Assembly: GCA_963808625.1 (NCBI GenBank)
Contig: CAWEHK010000035.1
Coordinates: forward strand, 32,001 to 96,000
Direction of reading: 5' to 3'
DNA from: an uncultured delta proteobacterium
Lineage (GTDB): Bacteria; Desulfobacterota; Syntrophobacteria; Syntrophobacterales; Syntrophobacteraceae
Length of the DNA: 64,000 nucleotides
The position numbers and the translations under genes were made by a program. A model generated the notes under the pieces. That model worked only from the letters and a program-made list of their open reading frames with translations, had not been told where the DNA came from and did no database searches. Below, one piece after another: positions 17,948 through 24,758 of this stretch (within the stretch, counting starts at the first letter, position 1; each line of letters opens with the position of its first letter).

Positions 17948-18501
17948 CCTTCTCTTTTGGTAGACCTCGCCCAAGACCTCCTCTTATCTGCCCGGGCTAC
18001 GAGAAGACACTCCACCCCGGCCCCATTCTCCAAGTCTCTCGTTCTCAAGCACGTATTCATACCCTGTCATCCCATCTAAAAAGAGCGCGTCGAAGTTCAC
18101 TGCGTGAAGAGCATCATCGCCTCTTTCGCTCGATGTCCTCATTCTGACTTGGGTTAACGGGAGGCGGGTTTTCCAACCGCCAGGCGACATCGGTTCTAGC
18201 GGCAATGTCTTCATCCTGAGCAGAGACCACACAATCCTGATCCTGCCCGGAAAGCAAGTGGGGGATTACCCCATATGCATCAGGCTAAGTACAGCACAGC
18301 AGAATAAAGTGTCCATTACCACCCGGTCGTCATTCCCGCATGCTCTTAGCGGGAATCCAGGGAATTTGCACAGCCTGAATTCCCGCCAGAAACACGCGGG
18401 AATGACGAGTGGCATTCGGACACCCATTTATGCGGGGGCGTACTAAGGGGTTTACCCGAGGTGGATTTATGCCTGCGACCGCTTGCCAGTCGGATGATGA
18501 A

Positions 18502-18723
18502 TGCCCTGAAAGGGCTTCATAAAAAATAGCCCAGGGTCAGCAAGAGCGCCACCCTGGGGAGGGGAAACCCAATTTCCTTTTCTTTACCCTGAAAGGGTTA
18601 GATAAATCGTTGTACCGCTATGTTTTATGTAACCCATTCAGGGTAGATAGTCGTGTTGTACCTGGCTCCCCAGGGTGGCGCTATCGCTGACCCTGGGCTA
18701 ATTTATCGAGCCCCTTCAGGGCA
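18502..18723. repeat. Long (~220 bp) imperfect palindrome of the CCCTGAAAGGG / CCCAGGGT type
   Basis: TGCCCTGAAAGGGCT...TAGCCCAGGGTCAGC..AGCGCCACCCTGGGGA mirrored by TCCCCAGGGTGGCGCT..GCTGACCCTGGGCTA...AGCCCCTTCAGGGCA. Confidence 0.85.
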
Positions 18724-18763
18724 GTAAAGTTAGCTTGATGCAATTGGGGATTGCCCCCCACCG

Positions 18764-20200
18764 GTGAAGCGAAGTCCGCCGCGCTCTCCCACGAGCATGC
18801 TCCGGTCCCTTCTCCTCATGACCCATCTCAAAATTCCCAGCATCACCACGTGGGTCAAACAAACGCGCACCGTTCCGCTCTTTGCCGTTCTCGCCGGCTT
18901 TGAACGGGATGACACGCCGGGGATCGGGACCTATTACGATTTCTTCGGGCGCCTCGTTGATGGTCCCTATCAGAAACCCTGTCCCCATCGGGTCAGGGAA
19001 TCTCAGGTCCTCAAGGGACGGCATCAGAGAAACCTCGGAGCGGAGAAAAAGGCCCATCTGGAAAAGCACGACCCCTCGTGCCCCCAGTCGGAAAAGCTTG
19101 CCAATGAACTCCTGGCCGATGCTGACAAGCCGCGACCGCAGGGCCTGCCAAAGTTCCTCGAAGACCTCCTCATCAAGATCGCGATCGTCCCAACCATCCA
19201 GGACGGCCTCGTTGACAATCCACATGAACTCATCGTTTCCGGCGATGGCTCCATCCTCGTCACGGCCGCCTCACCCCGCGGCAAACCCACCTGCGCCTGC
19301 CGCACCCACCAGTGCGACCATGAACGGAGCTACACCTCGCCCACCGCCAAATGGTGCTACGATCACTACCGCGACACTTACTTTTTTGGCGATCGCTATT
19401 ATCACCTGGTGCTCCATCAGAATGGCCACGACCTGCCCCTGCTCACGCTCTTGCCAGGTGGCAACGAGAGCGATTTCACCCTCTCCCTCAAGGCCTTCGA
19501 CCGTTTTCTCAAGGCCGCCCGGGAACACGGCCTCGATCTGAACATTGCCATCTTCTGCGGCGACGGCCACCATGACTCCCACGCCCACTACCGCTATTTC
19601 CTCAAAAAGGACGTCAGTCCCGTGATTCCCCTCGGCGAGAACAGCAAAAAAACCTATCCCCATTTGCTCGATGAACAGGGCGTAAAACTTGACAGCGACG
19701 GCGTACCCCTTTGCCCGCAAGGAATGCGCATGCGCCACCATCAGTATCAGGAAAGCCGCCACACTCATGTCTATGGCTGCCCGGCAAAACGCAATACCCA
19801 TCGCGACGGCAAATCAGTCTATGTCATGCACCTCGAGGATTGCCCGCAACAGAAGGACTGTGCACCCGAAAGCGTTCTCGCCCCTCTGGTCTACATCAAA
19901 TCCGATACCGACCCGCGACTCTATCCCCCCATTCCTCGCGACAGTGAGCGCTTTAAAGAGCTCTACAAAGAGCGCAGCGCCACCGAGCGCTGCAACGCCC
20001 TCAATGACACCTGCAAACTGGATCGATCATGCCGAAACGCCAGCTATGGACTGATTCGCCTGACTCTGGCGAACATCGTCGAACATGCCGTGGTCCGCAA
20101 CCTGGAAGCCGTGAAACGGTCCTCCAGGAAGAAGCTCCTGGCCCAGACCCTGAGCATGATCGGCATCATTTACCGCGAGGAATTCTTCAACAGCGGATAA
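18764..20200 (+). CDS. DDE transposase of the IS4/IS5/IS1182 superfamily, probably 5'-truncated
   Basis: DUF772-like N-terminal stretch (MLRSLLL...FAVLAGF...PGIGTYYDF), SGDGS, CGDGHHD, a Cys-rich insertion and the Y..R...ER.N signature (LYKERSATERCN). No good RBS or start. Confidence 0.75.
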   Translation: MKRSPPRSPTSMLRSLLLMTHLKIPSITTWVKQTRTVPLFAVLAGFERDDTPGIGTYYDFFGRLVDGPYQKPCPHRVRESQVLKGRHQRNLGAEKKAHLEKHDPSCPQSEKLANELLADADKPRPQGLPKFLEDLLIKIAIVPTIQDGLVDNPHELIVSGDGSILVTAASPRGKPTCACRTHQCDHERSYTSPTAKWCYDHYRDTYFFGDRYYHLVLHQNGHDLPLLTLLPGGNESDFTLSLKAFDRFLKAAREHGLDLNIAIFCGDGHHDSHAHYRYFLKKDVSPVIPLGENSKKTYPHLLDEQGVKLDSDGVPLCPQGMRMRHHQYQESRHTHVYGCPAKRNTHRDGKSVYVMHLEDCPQQKDCAPESVLAPLVYIKSDTDPRLYPPIPRDSERFKELYKERSATERCNALNDTCKLDRSCRNASYGLIRLTLANIVEHAVVRNLEAVKRSSRKKLLAQTLSMIGIIYREEFFNSG

Positions 20201-20444
20201 CGATAGGAGTCAAAATGTAGGATTGCTGCTGCCAAACTGAATCAAAATAACCTTCGCCCGGCCGAAAGCCCCTTTCGGACCGAACACCCGAGCTGTTCCC
20301 CTTGTTTCCGGAATGCCCCGCAACTCGACCCAGGATCACCCGTTTTGACCGACCTCCGACCGTCTATCCCCACCCAATGCCCCCCCAAACCACCGCAAAA
20401 CACCCCCGCCACACCAACACGAACCGCCTTCAACAACCAATGGG

Positions 20445-20467
20445 CTCTCGGATTTCAATTCCGAGAG
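20445..20467. other. Hairpin CTCTCGGA-N7-TCCGAGAG, probable right end of the upstream IS
   Basis: 8-bp perfect stem ending a ~260-bp C/A-rich non-coding tail, 13 bp before the istA ATG. Confidence 0.45.
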
Positions 20468-20480
20468 TTCTCGAAGAAGG

Positions 20481-23228
20481 ATGAACGTTTTGAAGCCAGA
20501 TCTGCAAGTGACAATCAAGACATTGCTGGGTAAGGGTCTGAGTCAACGGGAGATCGAACGAAAGACGGGGATCGATCGAAAGACCATCCGGAGGTATGAT
20601 CAGTCAACCAGTTTGATGGGGTTGCAAGAAAGTGAGCATTCAAAATCCCCCACTGAGCAAGATGTGGCCACCGGGTCGGGAAAGCCATCGGTGGACAATC
20701 CCCCATCCTGGCCACCGGCTCAGAAACCAGACTTCCCCAAGCATGTTCGTTCCGCCTGTGAAACGCATCGGGAGTGGATCCAGGAGCAGGTGAAGCTGGG
20801 CCGTAATGCCATGGCCATCTACCAGGATCTGGTGGAACTGTTCGGTTTCAATCACCGCTACAACAGCGTGAAGCGGTTTGTGCGGGGGCTCAAAAGACAA
20901 GACCCTCAGCAGTATGACCGGCTGGAATTCTTGATGGGAGAAGAAGCCCAGGTGGATTATGGGCTGGGCGCACCGACTCTTCATAGCAGTGGGAAGTATC
21001 GGCGCCCCCGTCTGTTCATCATGACGTTGAAGTATTCAGGGCGTGCCTTTCGTAAAGTTGTATGGCGATCGAGCAAGGAAACGTGGGCCAAGCTGCATGA
21101 GGAAGCCTTCCGCTATCTTACGGGGTGCCCCCAATATGTCACCCTGGACAATCTCAAGGAAGGCGTGATCAAGCCGGACATCTATGAACCGGACCTCAAT
21201 CCTCTCTATGCCGCCATGTTGGAGCACTACAAGGTGGTGGCGGACCCGGCGAGGGTCAGCGACTCGGACCGCAAGGGAACGGTGGAAAATGCTGTGAAAC
21301 ACACGCAGAACACCGCCCTGAAAGGACGCAAATTCGGCAGCATCGAGGCCCAGAATGAATGGTTGTTGCACTGGGAAAGTCGCTGGGCATCGCTGCGGAT
21401 CCATGGCCGGGCCAAACGCCAGGTAGAGGAAATGTTTCAGGAAGAGAAACCCTATCTGACGGAACTGCCCCTGAGGCCGTTTCGCTATTTTCAGCAGGAG
21501 ACCCGGACGGTCTACGATGACGGGACGATCCAGGTGGGCAACTCCTACTATGCGGCGAGTCCCGCTCCGTTAGGCAGTGAGGTGATGGTGCGGATCTTCG
21601 ATGAAGAAATCGAGATTCTCGATCCTCGCCGGATGGAGGTCATTCGTCGACATCCAAAGAGTATGCGGGCGGGTTCCTTGATGATGGAACCCGGGGACCG
21701 GATCTTCAATCCGTCTCGGGAAACGGACCGACTCTTGGCCCAGGCCGAAGCCATCGGCCCGCACACCTTCGGCTTGTGCGAGCAATGGTTTAACGAAGAA
21801 GGGCGCAGCGGCCAACGCCGGATGTATGGCCTGGTTAATCTGGTTCGGCATTACCCGGCCGACACCGTGGAGAAAGCGGCAGAACTGGCCAGACACAATG
21901 GACTGAGAAGCTCCAAAGCCTTGCGGCGGATGGTGGAGAGCATGGCCGCGGAAGCCGGGGAAAGGAAGGTCGAACCATCCGAAGGGCTCACGCAAGACCA
22001 TCCCTTGATTCGCTCGGGTGAAGACTACGCCGCCTTCTGGGATCAGCATGCCGCCCAAGCGGCGCCTGAGGCCGGAGCCGTCCCAAAGGAGAGCATTCCC
22101 TCCAGATCGCCCATCATCTGCCGGGAGCAACTGCCCCAAATCTGGCGGCAAGCAAGTTGGCTGAAGGTGATCGAGGTCTTTCAACTGAGTGTAGACCACA
22201 AGCGCCGCCGCCGAGACGATGAAATCTGGCTCAAATCACCGTTTACGCTTGAGGAGCAGGCCTCAATGCACGTCAGTTTATCGGCAAACATCTACAAGGA
22301 TTTCAGCAGCGGCAAAGGCGGCGGGATCATGCAATTCTGCCGGGAGATGCTGCGCCGGCAGGGTCGGGAAATGACCATGTTCGAAGCAGCGCAATGGATG
22401 GTAGCCGAAGGAATCTCCACGGCGAAGCCCGAAACCTTCCGTGCACACGGCGAGCGGCCGCAGCCAGAGGCAACAGGCCATCCCCTGGTCTCCAATCACA
22501 TCAATCGCGCCATCGAAGTCGATCTGCGCCGTTATCTGCGCCCGGATCATCCCGAATGGCGTCGTCGGGGCATATCCGCTGGCACCTGCCGCTACCTGGG
22601 CTGTGGGTATTTGCCAAAGCTTGCCAGGGGAAGTGCGGCCTCTCCCCTCAACTCCAGGTTAGTGTTCCAGATTCGCGGCCTGAGAGAAAACGGCCATGAT
22701 CTTCAGGCGATTATCCTGAGTCATAGCGGACGGGCACTCTCCCGTGAACAAGAAGACGCGGATGGAAAATACTGGAGCTATCCGTTCCGGAAAGGTTGGG
22801 AAATCTACAATCAGGATCAGCTTCTGTTAGATGCGGAAGCTCGCCGTCAAGCAAACACTTTTGGCCTGGTTCTGGTGGAGGGGTTTTTTGATGTGGCCAA
22901 GCTGGTGGAAGCAGGTTGCCGGAACGCCGGCGCCTTGATGGGCACACACCTCTCCGGGGAACAGATCGAGCGGTTGGCGTGGCTTCGTTCCCGCATCCGG
23001 TTCCCTCGGATCGTGTTGTTTCTGGACCGGGACCAGGCTGGGCGCAACGGAGCCCGGCAGATACGCGAGCGACTTCGGGGTCACCACTTCGAGGTGAACG
23101 TGTTTGACTGGGATCGGAACATCTCCTGGAATGGTAAACACCTTGAGCCGATCCCGGACGCTATCCAAGACCCGGCCGACATGCCGGTGGAACAACTTCA
23201 GCAGTTGCGCAGGGAAGGCATCATTTAA
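20481..23228 (+). CDS. istA: IS21 transposase IstA fused to a DnaG-type primase (915 aa)
   Basis: aa 1-525: HTH (SQREIERKTGIDRKTIRRY) and DDE triad AQVD159, LD223NLK, KGTVE269. aa ~560-915: SPF..E..ASM.V...Y.DFSSGKGG zinc-ribbon-like module, RRGIS..LG.GY..RLVF..SGR..KY primase core, TOPRIM VE800GFFD, ALMGT.LS.EQ, LD849RD851QAG, DPAD. Confidence 0.9.
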   Translation: MNVLKPDLQVTIKTLLGKGLSQREIERKTGIDRKTIRRYDQSTSLMGLQESEHSKSPTEQDVATGSGKPSVDNPPSWPPAQKPDFPKHVRSACETHREWIQEQVKLGRNAMAIYQDLVELFGFNHRYNSVKRFVRGLKRQDPQQYDRLEFLMGEEAQVDYGLGAPTLHSSGKYRRPRLFIMTLKYSGRAFRKVVWRSSKETWAKLHEEAFRYLTGCPQYVTLDNLKEGVIKPDIYEPDLNPLYAAMLEHYKVVADPARVSDSDRKGTVENAVKHTQNTALKGRKFGSIEAQNEWLLHWESRWASLRIHGRAKRQVEEMFQEEKPYLTELPLRPFRYFQQETRTVYDDGTIQVGNSYYAASPAPLGSEVMVRIFDEEIEILDPRRMEVIRRHPKSMRAGSLMMEPGDRIFNPSRETDRLLAQAEAIGPHTFGLCEQWFNEEGRSGQRRMYGLVNLVRHYPADTVEKAAELARHNGLRSSKALRRMVESMAAEAGERKVEPSEGLTQDHPLIRSGEDYAAFWDQHAAQAAPEAGAVPKESIPSRSPIICREQLPQIWRQASWLKVIEVFQLSVDHKRRRRDDEIWLKSPFTLEEQASMHVSLSANIYKDFSSGKGGGIMQFCREMLRRQGREMTMFEAAQWMVAEGISTAKPETFRAHGERPQPEATGHPLVSNHINRAIEVDLRRYLRPDHPEWRRRGISAGTCRYLGCGYLPKLARGSAASPLNSRLVFQIRGLRENGHDLQAIILSHSGRALSREQEDADGKYWSYPFRKGWEIYNQDQLLLDAEARRQANTFGLVLVEGFFDVAKLVEAGCRNAGALMGTHLSGEQIERLAWLRSRIRFPRIVLFLDRDQAGRNGARQIRERLRGHHFEVNVFDWDRNISWNGKHLEPIPDAIQDPADMPVEQLQQLRREGII

Positions 23229-23272
23229 AAAAAGTAATCACCGGATGAAAAAGAAAACAAGGAGCCAAACCG

Positions 23273-24073
23273 ATGGACATGCCGAACGCAGAAATCCAAA
23301 GACATCTTGGGGCGCTTCGCCTCCATGGTATGAAAGCCACCCTGGAGCCCCGACTCATTCAGGCCAATCAGGGCGCTTCCTTTATAGAGATGTTTGCCTG
23401 CCTGGTGCAAGATGAGCTCGATTGGCGGAGCTCAAGGCTTACTGAAACCCGCTTCAAGGCCTCCGGTCTCACAGAGCGACCCACTCTGACGGAATTCGAT
23501 TGGGGCTTCAATCCGAAACTGCCCAAGAAGGAAATCTATGAACTGGTCAGCGGCAAGTTCATTCGAGACGGCGATGACGCCCTGCTGATCGGGGCGCCGG
23601 GAACGGGCAAATCCCATATCGCCAAAACGGTGGCCCACTCCGCCATCCAGACCGGCTATAAAGTCGTGTATCGGGAAGCTCACACCTTCTTCGAAGACCT
23701 CTTCGAAGCCACTCAGCTCAAACGGAGAAAAAAGATGACCAAGCTCTTCTCCGAAGCAGATCTCTTGGTCATCGACGACTTGTTCCTGCGAAAGAAAGTC
23801 AACGATCACGCTACCGACGATTTGCTCGATATTATTCTGAATCGCTATTCCTCCAGGAAAAGTTCGATGATAACCTCAAATCGACCCCTGGAGGACTGGG
23901 GAAAACTCCTTTACGACAATGCCGCCTCCTCGGTCATCCTGTACCGCCTCCTTCACCGGGGCCATCTGCTCAAGTTCGAAGGCAAAAGTTATCGCCTCAA
24001 GGAGGCATCGATCCGGTTGACGGAAAACAAACGAAAATCTCTGGATGAAAAAGGAATAAGCTTGGATCTCTGA
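23273..24073 (+). CDS. istB: IS21 helper AAA+ ATPase IstB (DnaC-like)
   Basis: EFDWGFNP, Walker A GAPGTGKSH, Walker B LLVIDD, ITSNRP..DW, GKSYR; RBS AAGGAG. Confidence 0.92.
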   Translation: MDMPNAEIQRHLGALRLHGMKATLEPRLIQANQGASFIEMFACLVQDELDWRSSRLTETRFKASGLTERPTLTEFDWGFNPKLPKKEIYELVSGKFIRDGDDALLIGAPGTGKSHIAKTVAHSAIQTGYKVVYREAHTFFEDLFEATQLKRRKKMTKLFSEADLLVIDDLFLRKKVNDHATDDLLDIILNRYSSRKSSMITSNRPLEDWGKLLYDNAASSVILYRLLHRGHLLKFEGKSYRLKEASIRLTENKRKSLDEKGISLDL

Positions 24074-24132
24074 GCAGATTAACGGTAGGTTATTTCTCTA
24101 CTGTCGCCGAAGCACTTCGACCCGACTACAGG

Positions 24133-24185
24133 GTGGGGGATTTTGACCCGGCCACAAGTGGGGGATTTTCAAGTGGCCATCCGGG
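24133..24185 (+). repeat. IS21 right terminal repeat region
   Basis: GTGGGGGATTTTGACCCGGCCACAAGTGGGGGATTTTCAAGTGGCCATCCGGG: two iterated putative transposase-binding units. Confidence 0.8.
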
Positions 24186-24758
24186 CTTCTGGTTGTCCAA
24201 TCTGGGCATCTTGACCGAAGCGACTGGGTTTTCACCCAGATAGATCTTCCAGAGTTTTGCTAGATTATATAGACGATTCATGAGGACGATCTGATGCTTT
24301 ATAGTGGCCTCAGTGAAAGGCCTACCGTGAATATTCTTACCCTCCTTCAGCTCTGTTTTCATTCTTTCGATATCGGGACCAGTAATTGAGTCCAGGCGCA
24401 TTTTCCCGAATCGGGGTTCAAGGTGAGCCCTGTAGTTGTATTCATCACACTTCCAAGTCTTTTTATTGTGTTTAGCCCAAATTAGGTACTGTTCCAACAG
24501 ATCATTGAGCTTCGGGCTTAGATTTACCCTATGGTGGGAGATGTCGTACTCAGCCCTGACAAGGTCACCCTTTATTGCAGCTTCAGTCTCTCTGGCAATG
24601 GTGAGATTATCGACCATCCGGTTTACGCGCTTGCCCTTTACGCTGACACATACCCTGTATTTTTTCTCCCTCCCAAAAATCATGCCACAGAACGGGCATA
24701 TCTTGGAATCAATCGCGACCGAGGACCTGCACTTTGTACAATAAATTTGGATAGCCAC
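24186..24758 (-). pseudogene. Tyrosine integrase, N-terminal part only (Zn-ribbon, arm and core-binding regions), interrupted by IS21
   Basis: CTKC..CPFC N-terminus; HLEPRFGKMRLDSIT..DIE...ATIKHQI.LM.RLYNLA..W.....NP SAM-like domain. After LDNQK the frame runs into the IS end; no catalytic domain in the window. Confidence 0.8.

Follow-up and report, generated by a model that had tools for sequence, protein, structure and literature searches.

Organization of the locus

The window analysed here is a stretch of 64,000 nucleotides of an uncultured delta proteobacterium. On its forward strand lies an istA-primase fusion ORF of 915 aa (20481..23228), followed 44 bp 3' by istB (23273..24073), which codes for a helper ATPase of the AAA+ class with 266 aa. 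An earlier note had described the fusion as one uninterrupted reading frame with the primase inside the element, between the istA core and istB; the frame from 20481 to 23228 was found open, with no stop, and the arrangement and the spacing to istB were upheld.

The IstA part (aa 1-525; 20481..22055, forward strand) consists of a first helix-turn-helix (HTH1), a disordered insert (aa 45-89), a second helix-turn-helix (HTH2), the DDE core with D159, D223 and E269, a beta-barrel (aa 338-392) and a helical C-terminal domain (aa 413-525). A flexible linker of variable length (aa 526-543; 22056..22109), previously noted as Ala/Pro-rich and with pLDDT below 50 in the full-length AF2 model, separates it from the primase half. 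The latter comprises a domain resembling the DnaG zinc ribbon but lacking the zinc ligands (aa 550-642; 22128..22406; Foldseek matches 1d0q_A and 2au3), and a DnaG RNA-polymerase domain (aa 690-915; 22548..23225), assigned from profile, structure and alignment matches, which includes a Toprim domain at aa 796-874 (E800, D804, D849 and D851). All of these segments are on the forward strand.

The linker was checked for an indel or stop that would separate two genes. Contigs from other samples span it and its length changes in frame only; 27-nt in-frame variants were present in the second copy of the same genome (906 aa; contig C36) and in contigs from other samples. Contigs from RNA libraries also cover the linker, where DNA carry-over is possible.

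Ends of the element and neighbouring sequences

The copy in the window is truncated at its 5' side (20473..24185, forward strand). The reading of this copy as a whole element did not hold: homology to the second genomic copy begins at 20473, which is 8 bp ahead of the start codon, and the left end of about 137 bp with the left inverted repeat (IRL) is missing. Exactly the span 20473..24185 is 97% identical to positions 105021-108706 of C36, another contig of the same genome (C36:105021-108706), where the copy is complete and its 906-aa fusion frame open. The IRL pattern had no match within the 64-kb window, and the 137-bp left end of the C36 copy was found, in a search of the genome, on C36 only. 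In place of the left end stands an unrelated insertion sequence (18764..20472, forward strand), with a DUF772/DDE_Tnp_1 transposase ORF at 18764-20200 recognized by weak Pfam matches and a right end at 20472; in C21, too, this is the base at which the repeat stops. A group II intron 3' end in the 273 bp that precede the ATG was considered and rejected, as Rfam gave no match at the gathering score between 16000 and 26000 and the upstream ORF is that of a DDE transposase. The other half of an interrupted integrase was sought to the left of the abutting insertion sequence and no Pfam match was obtained.

The right inverted repeat (24133..24185, forward strand) contains two direct copies of a site of about 22 nt, at 24133-24154 and 24158-24179, and is the only end with repeated sites in the window copy. 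Both ends, with repeated sites, are present in the second copy of the same genome and in 13 inspected copies from three other genomes. A CTGTCGCC box (24101..24108, forward strand), spotted by eye, has its inverted partner GGCGACAG in the left ends of complete copies. Two ORFs only, the istA-primase fusion and istB, are found between the element ends, and no Pfam or NCBIfam polymerase domain was detected in them.

Assignment to the IS21 family

The claim that aa 1-525 form a complete IstA was confirmed by a match to the NCBIfam model transpos_IS21 (NF033546; 240.8 bits, cut-off 160, aa 13-330) and by alignment of D159, D223 and E269 with the DDE residues of IS5376 IstA (PDB 8Q4D; aligned also to 8B4H); a Mu-transpos_C_2 match covers aa 329-397. 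The window IstB matched IstB_IS21 (PF01695) with 163.3 bits (cut-off 24.1, E 9e-48) and NF038214 with 193.9 bits, slightly below the 200-bit cut-off of that model. By the IstA family score and the IstB directly downstream, the element is, as judged from sequence, an IS21-family member.

The nearest named unfused element is IS1631 (with IS1631-like elements; Bradyrhizobium, and unfused in Burkholderia/Paraburkholderia), whose IstA shares 57% identity over aa 1-516/532 and is likewise directly followed by istB; that IstA has 585 aa and no primase, and its istB starts 4 bp after istA. Canonical IS21/IS5376, known from cryo-EM (8B4H, 8Q4D), has the same order of HTH, DDE and beta-barrel parts with aligned catalytic residues, and is also alike in the AAA+ helper IstB, the two repeated sites per end and the short target duplications. 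The canonical IstA C-terminus is described as a short flexible tail in PMC12486865, whereas in the fusion a helical domain, the linker and a primase of 370 aa occupy that position.

Fold and conservation of the primase half

A DnaG core with an intact TOPRIM had been proposed for the C-terminal half, and was recovered. Toprim_4 matched aa 796-874 with 42.5 bits (cut-off 25, E 7.6e-11), E800 and D849-x-D851 being Toprim acidic residues, and TIGR01391 (dnaG) gave a partial match, up to model position 337 of 414 (E 6e-24; 84.6 bits vs an equivalog cut-off of 283.6 bits). PDB entries matched by sequence were primases or primase-helicases in 13 of 13 cases. The AF2 model of the primase half (pLDDT 88.2) was compared by Foldseek and has the DnaG/TOPRIM fold; the best match was the zinc-binding and RNA-polymerase domains (ZBD+RPD) of Aquifex DnaG (E 5e-15), and all matches listed at E of 1e-3 or better (35 counted) were primases or primase-helicases. 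The RNA-polymerase domains of DnaG proteins matched at E 1e-8 to 1e-10, RNase M5 and RecR only at E 0.014 or above.

Seventeen motif or catalytic positions are identical in 19/19 fused members, and E800, D804, D849 and D851 are invariant in the same set. The basic-ridge motifs of the N-terminal subdomain (RxxFxxR, GR and K-Y/W), aligned to S. aureus and Aquifex DnaG, are invariant in the family. The zinc-ribbon-like module was borne out in its fold (1d0q_A, TMt 0.72) but not in its chemistry: all four zinc-ligand positions are occupied by S, T, D and S, in 19/19 fused members, and the match to the CHC2 ribbon model PF01807 is sub-threshold (21.2 bits, cut-off 24.9). This zinc-less domain is the most conserved stretch of the primase half (76-87% identity). 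Values of dN/dS, which are rough since dS is saturated (about 1.1), were 0.13 for IstA, 0.38 for the linker, 0.18 for the primase half, which is under purifying selection, and 0.136 for the ribbon domain within it.

The protein ends about 40 aa past the Toprim domain, and a C-terminal DnaB-helicase-binding domain is absent. The host's own dnaG is present elsewhere (421 bits), and the fused module is not a cellular DnaG orthologue. Compared with bacterial DnaG (Aquifex 2AU3, S. aureus 4E2K, E. coli 1DDE), the module shares the ribbon and RNA-polymerase/Toprim domains, the catalytic acids and the core motifs, but is only 19-24% identical, lacks the zinc ligands and the DnaB-binding domain, and is tethered at its N-terminus to a transposase. 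By sequence and model, it is a DnaG-type primase with an intact predicted active site, minus the zinc ligands and the helicase-binding domain.

Mobility and distribution of the fused family

Full-length homologues with istB downstream were searched for, and many were found. Of the best 120 database relatives of aa 540-915, at least 101 reach a length of 800 aa, most of these carrying rve/Mu-transpos_C_2 as well as Toprim Pfam domains, and an open frame of at least 800 aa surrounds the primase match at 39/63 genome loci examined. Within three other genomes, copies are 99.7-100% identical to one another over about 3.72-3.80 kb, and direct repeats of 4-8 bp flank 12/13 of the copies inspected there, the remaining one being ambiguous; no target duplication was seen around the complete copy of the genome to which the window belongs. 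The fused IS21-primase lineage is active and recently mobile.

Pairwise identity in the fused clade is 60-92%, across several phyla. In the IstA tree the 31 fused members make up one side of a branch with an SH-aLRT of 94, and an unfused protein of 547 aa (P0126) is sister to them. Among plasmids, none of at least 5000 matching PLSDB records covers 80% or more of the fused protein, and the primase half had weak matches only (33% identity or less, mostly to dnaG). A phylum sample of 401 genomes, queried with P0160, gave fused copies and a T4SS-linked free-standing gene, nothing else, IMG/VR gave one fused copy plus phage primases, and a further look-up with P0160 had no result. A right inverted repeat (IRR) within 60 nt of an IRL, as at a circle or tandem junction, was sought in all loci collected and none was found, which is no argument against circles. 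In current databases the fusions of about 900 aa carry no label more specific than 'IS21 family transposase' or 'ribonuclease M5', and literature searches, with ISfinder and subscription journals outside their scope, found no published description of an IstA-primase fusion.

Origin of the primase

The nearest free-standing relatives of the module are about 370-445 aa long and 31-42% identical over the whole 376 aa. Their neighbours include a relaxase at 8/10 loci, a coupling protein at 5/10 and MobC/NikA at 4/10, at least one of the three being present at 10/10; IS21 genes were beside none of the 10. These proteins, from uncultured organisms and encoded beside MobA/VirD2 relaxases, MobC/NikA and VirD4/TraG, have the length of the fused module, no helicase-binding domain and a likewise degenerate ribbon (S-x-C-T), but they are separate genes in transfer modules and are not joined to a transposase. 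The free-standing group is the more diverse, with a median pairwise identity of 44% vs 67% in the fused group. The fused primase thus appears, from these comparisons, to be borrowed from conjugative or mobilisable elements.

One further free-standing protein, P0134 (383 aa, 51% identical), carries the S/T/D/S signature of the fused clade; its sole contig is 1.9 kb long, and no locus for it was found in a metagenome scan.

Discussion

A replicative copy-out step has been proposed, though not demonstrated, for IS21 in PMC11208146 and 10.1101/2023.06.07.543989. The former also describes contact between the C-terminal region of IstA and IstB at the strand-transfer complex, so that a primase appended there would lie near the donor-target junctions. 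In copy-out/paste-in transposition, one transposon strand would be bridged and the element then replicated from the donor 3'-OH, and the other strand would need RNA primers. In the cell, the DnaB helicase recruits DnaG and clusters it by way of a C-terminal DnaG domain that the fused primase lacks. The IstA assembly at the transposon ends may stand in for DnaB as a primase platform, holding several primase domains beside single-stranded or forked transposon DNA; second-strand synthesis would then be independent of waiting for the host primosome. The closest relatives, the helicase-independent primases of conjugative and mobilisable elements, would do the same job on transferred single strands.

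The probability that this is an active IS21 lineage in which a DnaG-type primase tethered to IstA primes a replicative copy-out step is put at about 0.5. We infer that the domain makes primers, and the step of transposition at which it would do so; priming by the element of its own transposition replication is the mechanism best supported. The fuller proposal, that the transposase assembly replaces DnaB and clusters a zinc-less, helicase-independent primase at the ends, with the element, in place of the host primosome, priming copy-out or cointegrate formation, is given slightly less than an even chance. Replication of excised circles, raised in the earlier note, has no support if taken to mean an autonomous replicon, since no origin, helicase or polymerase was seen. 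Against priming count the loss of every one of the four zinc ligands from the template-recognition domain and the status of the IS21 copy-out pathway as a proposal. Canonical IS21 elements, moreover, among them the IS1631 group with its 57% identity, move with no primase at all, so that the domain is not mechanistically required by the family.

That IS21 relatives manage without it would also suit a passenger primase, with no role in transposition and serving the host or a plasmid, or a neutral fusion. Such a passenger is improbable: the linker varies in length and the frame of the fusion never does, across a clade of that divergence and phyletic range; the fused members group on one side of the well-supported IstA branch, the dN/dS of the primase half is low, and the host has its own dnaG. 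A non-priming role, in which the module binds single-stranded DNA, forks or SSB and so directs the transpososome (for instance towards templates on the lagging strand or conjugative DNA entering the cell), or recognizes a site in the element such as the GGCGACAG box, is unlikely, if the least so of these readings. It accords with the ribbon, stripped of its zinc ligands, being the best conserved part of the primase half and with the inverted box conserved in both element ends; the Toprim acids and DnaG core motifs, invariant in 19/19 members, would be unexpected were catalysis dispensable.

Toprim domains are also found in nucleases. The module might accordingly cut the non-transferred strand, as a nuclease of the OLD or RNase M5 kind, and convert the reaction to cut-and-paste, as TnsA does for Tn7; the JGI auto-annotation of these proteins as 'ribonuclease M5' and a weak TIGR00334 match in one free-standing relative point that way. 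We regard this as more improbable still than a passenger, given that the whole DnaG RNA-polymerase domain is present and conserved, together with the motifs of its N-terminal subdomain and with the ribbon, and that nuclease-type Toprim structures match the Toprim core of about 100 residues only, at E 0.014 or above vs 5e-15 to 1e-8 for primases. The possibility that sequencing or assembly produced the fusion, or that the locus holds a pseudogene, has a negligible probability. The source genome is MAG-like (54 contigs, 84.6% complete), and at 20472/20473, where the window copy meets another repeat on its left, no mapped contig reaches across the junction by 31 nt or more. For the fusion itself, however, this reading is already refuted by the presence of the element twice in the genome, by homologues in the hundreds and by linker-spanning contigs from independent runs.

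Casposons and Polintons are self-synthesising transposons, in which the element supplies a DNA-synthesis enzyme for transposition-linked replication. The IEE PrimPol acts on copy-out IS elements, according to 10.1101/2023.06.07.543989, and so is a case where a helper of the mobile element provides the enzyme. The enzyme in these systems, a family B polymerase or an AEP PrimPol, is not fused to the transposase, whereas the IS21-primase element has no polymerase.

The recruitment of DNA synthesis to copy-out/paste-in intermediates is poorly understood, and the IS21 replicative pathway is at the stage of a proposal. The existence in nature of an abundant, evidently active lineage with an intact primase covalently joined to its transposase suggests that priming limits the rate and is open to selection. 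The family also represents a conjugation-type primase re-used by a transposon, and in it the DnaG template-recognition domain occurs in a zinc-less form that is well conserved. If the priming reading is true, the element would be the first DDE insertion sequence of bacteria known to carry a gene for a replication-initiation enzyme, and would give direct access to the replicative step of IS21 transposition, which is still unproven.

The fused ORF and its family

A single 915-aa ORF runs without interruption from 20481 to 23228 of the window (plus strand), and a 266-aa ORF starts 44 bp after it (23273-24073). Residues 13-330 of the fused protein scored 240.8 bits against the NCBIfam IS21 transposase model (cut-off 160), a Mu-transposase-type beta-barrel was recognized by Pfam at aa 329-397, and, in an alignment with IS5376 IstA, whose structure is solved, D159, D223 and E269 coincide with its catalytic residues. 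The C-terminal part has a Toprim_4 match (aa 796-874, E 7.6e-11), a partial match to the dnaG model TIGR01391 (E 6e-24, under the equivalog cut-off) and a weak, below-threshold match to the DnaG zinc ribbon model. The 266-aa ORF is IstB (PF01695, E 9e-48). The coordinates and residues that the earlier note gave for an IstA-primase fusion followed by istB are therefore correct.

When aa 540-915 served as query in a word-indexed search, 8000 candidates were scored and 585 proteins reached E <= 1e-3. The 120 best relatives are all at least 69% identical; 101 of them are at least 800 aa long, and most carry transposase-side Pfam domains together with Toprim; the 19 shorter ones lie mostly on contigs below about 4 kb. 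Representatives clustered at 50% identity, searched exhaustively, yielded one more full-length cluster (P0123, 913 aa, 59% identity), along with IstA proteins that are not fused and primase-like proteins of about 380 aa that stand alone. A relative is encoded at 78 loci in contigs sampled at one genome per species; 63 were examined, 15 short or partial matches being left out. An open frame of at least 800 aa surrounds the primase match in 39 of the 63, and the others are contig-end run-offs, broken copies or distant free-standing genes. Full-length homologues of the fusion thus exist. Named hosts are mainly Desulfobacterota (Syntrophobacteraceae, Desulfoferrobacter suflitae DRH4, strain NaphS2, Desulfatiglandales), and the records add Acidobacteriota/Terriglobia and one Omnitrophota MAG.

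The genome of the window holds a second copy on contig C36, 97% identical, with an open fused frame of 906 aa and a linker shorter by 27 nt. The linker is also crossed by contigs from other public runs, X1 (22005-22615), X15 (21907-22862) and X16 (22014-22577). Their sole difference across the linker is a net in-frame length change of 27 nt. X15 and X16 come from RNA-library runs, and this cover is compatible with, and not proof of, a single transcript. The fusion is genuine, and the family that it represents is large; in public annotation the proteins appear as 'IS21 family transposase' or 'transposase/ribonuclease M5'.

Fold, active site and selection of the primase half

A profile of 37 primase halves gave 13 matches among PDB sequences, and each of these is either a DnaG primase or a primase-helicase of the T7 type. 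Foldseek, run with the AF2 model of aa 540-915 (mean pLDDT 88.2), placed Aquifex DnaG (ribbon plus RNA-polymerase domain, E 5e-15) first, followed by DnaG catalytic cores of five bacteria and then by T4 gp61, Twinkle and T7 gp4. The non-primase Toprim proteins RNase M5 and RecR gave no match better than E 0.014, and their matches were confined to the Toprim core. The TOPRIM fold proposed for the C-terminal half is borne out by these matches, by the model and by Toprim_4. Seventeen motif and catalytic positions, including E800, G801, D804, D849, D851 and basic-ridge residues, are invariant in 19 of 19 fused members. The 'zinc-ribbon-like module' of the earlier note holds as a fold, since the isolated Bacillus zinc-binding domain matches at TMt 0.72, but not as a zinc site: the four zinc-binding positions of DnaG are S, T, D and S in all 19, and free-standing relatives have S-x-C-T there. 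The protein stops shortly past the Toprim domain and so lacks a DnaB-binding domain. The primase half shares its fold with cellular DnaG and is predicted to function alike, whereas it departs from it in equivalog score, zinc ligands and helicase-binding domain.

Nei-Gojobori dN/dS over 16 ORFs, rough values because dS is saturated (about 1.1), was 0.126 for IstA, 0.182 for the primase half (ribbon 0.136, catalytic domain 0.171) and 0.379 for the linker. In the full-length AF2 model (pLDDT 80.3, pTM 0.40) confident domains are separated by low-confidence joins at aa 526-543 and 652-672, and the primase half is predicted to be a tethered module on flexible links. A normal host dnaG (421 bits) lies elsewhere in the genome, on contig C23, and a third DnaG-like open frame (C10:59315-60106, 672 aa) has weak zinc-ribbon and Toprim matches.

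Element ends and mobility

Both ends are visible in the C36 copy, with termini 5'-CCCTGATGGCCAC...GTGGCCATCCGGG-3' and two direct copies of a site of about 22 nt at each end; no direct repeat flanks this copy. Copies in three other genomes are 99.7-100% identical across 3.72-3.80 kb and have unrelated flanks, and direct repeats of 4-8 bp flank 12 of 13 inspected copies, one being ambiguous. The family has therefore been recently active. Duplications made by a single element range from 4 to 8 bp in length inside one genome (L028-L034, L038-L042, L020-L025), and from 5 to 8 bp in NaphS2; a DDE transposase whose spacing is fixed would not usually give such variation. Insertions of 1.8-3.5 kb interrupt some Desulfatiglandales and NaphS2 copies (L063 near 6600, L037, L032). 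Two non-coding features are conserved in the family (window 24101-24108; the 1455-1500 region of L002, the C36 locus; left ends of the family). A box, GGCGACAG, occurs inverted in both element ends. A hairpin, CTCTCATTTGT...ACAAATGGGAGAG, overlaps the istA ribosome-binding site, shows compensatory changes in some members and, judged from sequence, probably serves translational control.

The window copy is incomplete. Its homology begins at 20473, 8 bp upstream of the ATG, and a pattern search found the left inverted repeat nowhere in the window; the element otherwise has the features of the IS21 family. Left of 20473 lies the end of a different repeat, an abutting IS (18764-20472) that encodes a 478-aa protein with a weak DUF772/DDE_Tnp_1 transposase match and has a partial 98-100% copy with the same end base on contig C21. 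The junction 20472/20473 may reflect a true rearrangement or a join made during assembly. The right end interrupts a tyrosine recombinase gene (24126-24758, minus strand), of which the N-terminal half (zinc ribbon and SAM-like domain) runs into it; the catalytic half was not found left of the element. Two further repeats, of about 148 bp (18300-18447; at least 15 genome copies, 93-99% identity) and about 300 bp (18443-18750; dozens of copies, 70-94%, on both strands), look like MITEs.

Origin of the primase and of the element

The nearest free-standing relatives of the primase half share 31-42% identity with it and measure about 370-445 aa. Their neighbourhoods were scanned at 10 loci (79 of 102 ORFs of at least 90 aa). 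A MobA/VirD2 relaxase was found at eight loci, a VirD4/TraG coupling protein at five, and MobC/NikA and an integrase at four each; no locus was without a transfer gene, and IS21 genes were absent from the ORFs scanned. Another free-standing relative, multi-copy in a genome of the same phylum, adjoins a T4SS pilin gene. Median pairwise identity is 44% in the free-standing group, the more diverse, versus 67% in the fused group. When a tree is built from the IstA part, the 31 fused proteins make up one side of a branch with SH-aLRT 94, and an unfused 547-aa IstA from Burkholderia/Paraburkholderia is their sister. The closest named element, IS1631 of Bradyrhizobium, is 57% identical over aa 1-516; its IstA has 585 aa with istB 4 bp after, whereas the window element has the 915-aa fusion with istB 44 bp after. 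The simplest history is that an IS1631-like element acquired the primase of a conjugative element once and then spread across phyla; with few unfused sequences sampled, the tree supports a single origin without proving it. P0266 (753 aa) has 131 initial residues 75% identical to IstA aa 318-448 and a remainder that does not match the query, and could represent a further fusion at the IstA C terminus or else a chimeric gene call.

Discussion

The element is a real, conserved and active IS21 variant, and its architecture is well supported. It is also new: no IstA-primase fusion was found described in the open literature, including IS21 structural papers (ISfinder and non-open journals lay outside the scope), and the word 'primase' does not occur in PMC12486865 or PMC11208146. 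The element differs from casposons and Polintons and, because it has no polymerase, is not self-synthesising in their sense.

Cellular DnaG depends on DnaB for its recruitment and works in concert with adjacent primase molecules. Primases of conjugation need no helicase to prime the single strand that is transferred. Copy-out of the IS911 type needs replication of a bridged intermediate. PMC11208146, PMC12486865 and the preprint 10.1101/2023.06.07.543989 describe IstA as a tetrameric assembly on the element ends, and its C-terminal region as contacting IstB in the strand-transfer complex. We propose, at a probability of about 0.5, that the transposase assembly takes over the recruiting role of DnaB; several primase domains would thereby be positioned at the element ends, where they would provide primers for the strand that extension from the donor 3'-OH cannot make.

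A non-catalytic role of the primase half in DNA binding or targeting is doubtful, given the invariant active site of the fused members. That the primase is a passenger gene is in keeping with IS21 relatives that manage without one, and seems to us improbable. Nuclease-type Toprim structures match weakly, and a nuclease function of the Toprim domain is accordingly a very improbable reading; an artefact, refuted for the fusion itself, has a likelihood close to nil. Priming by the transposase-tethered domain, the mechanism that we infer, is directly testable. More speculatively, a primase domain derived from conjugation might tie the transposase to incoming or transferred DNA.
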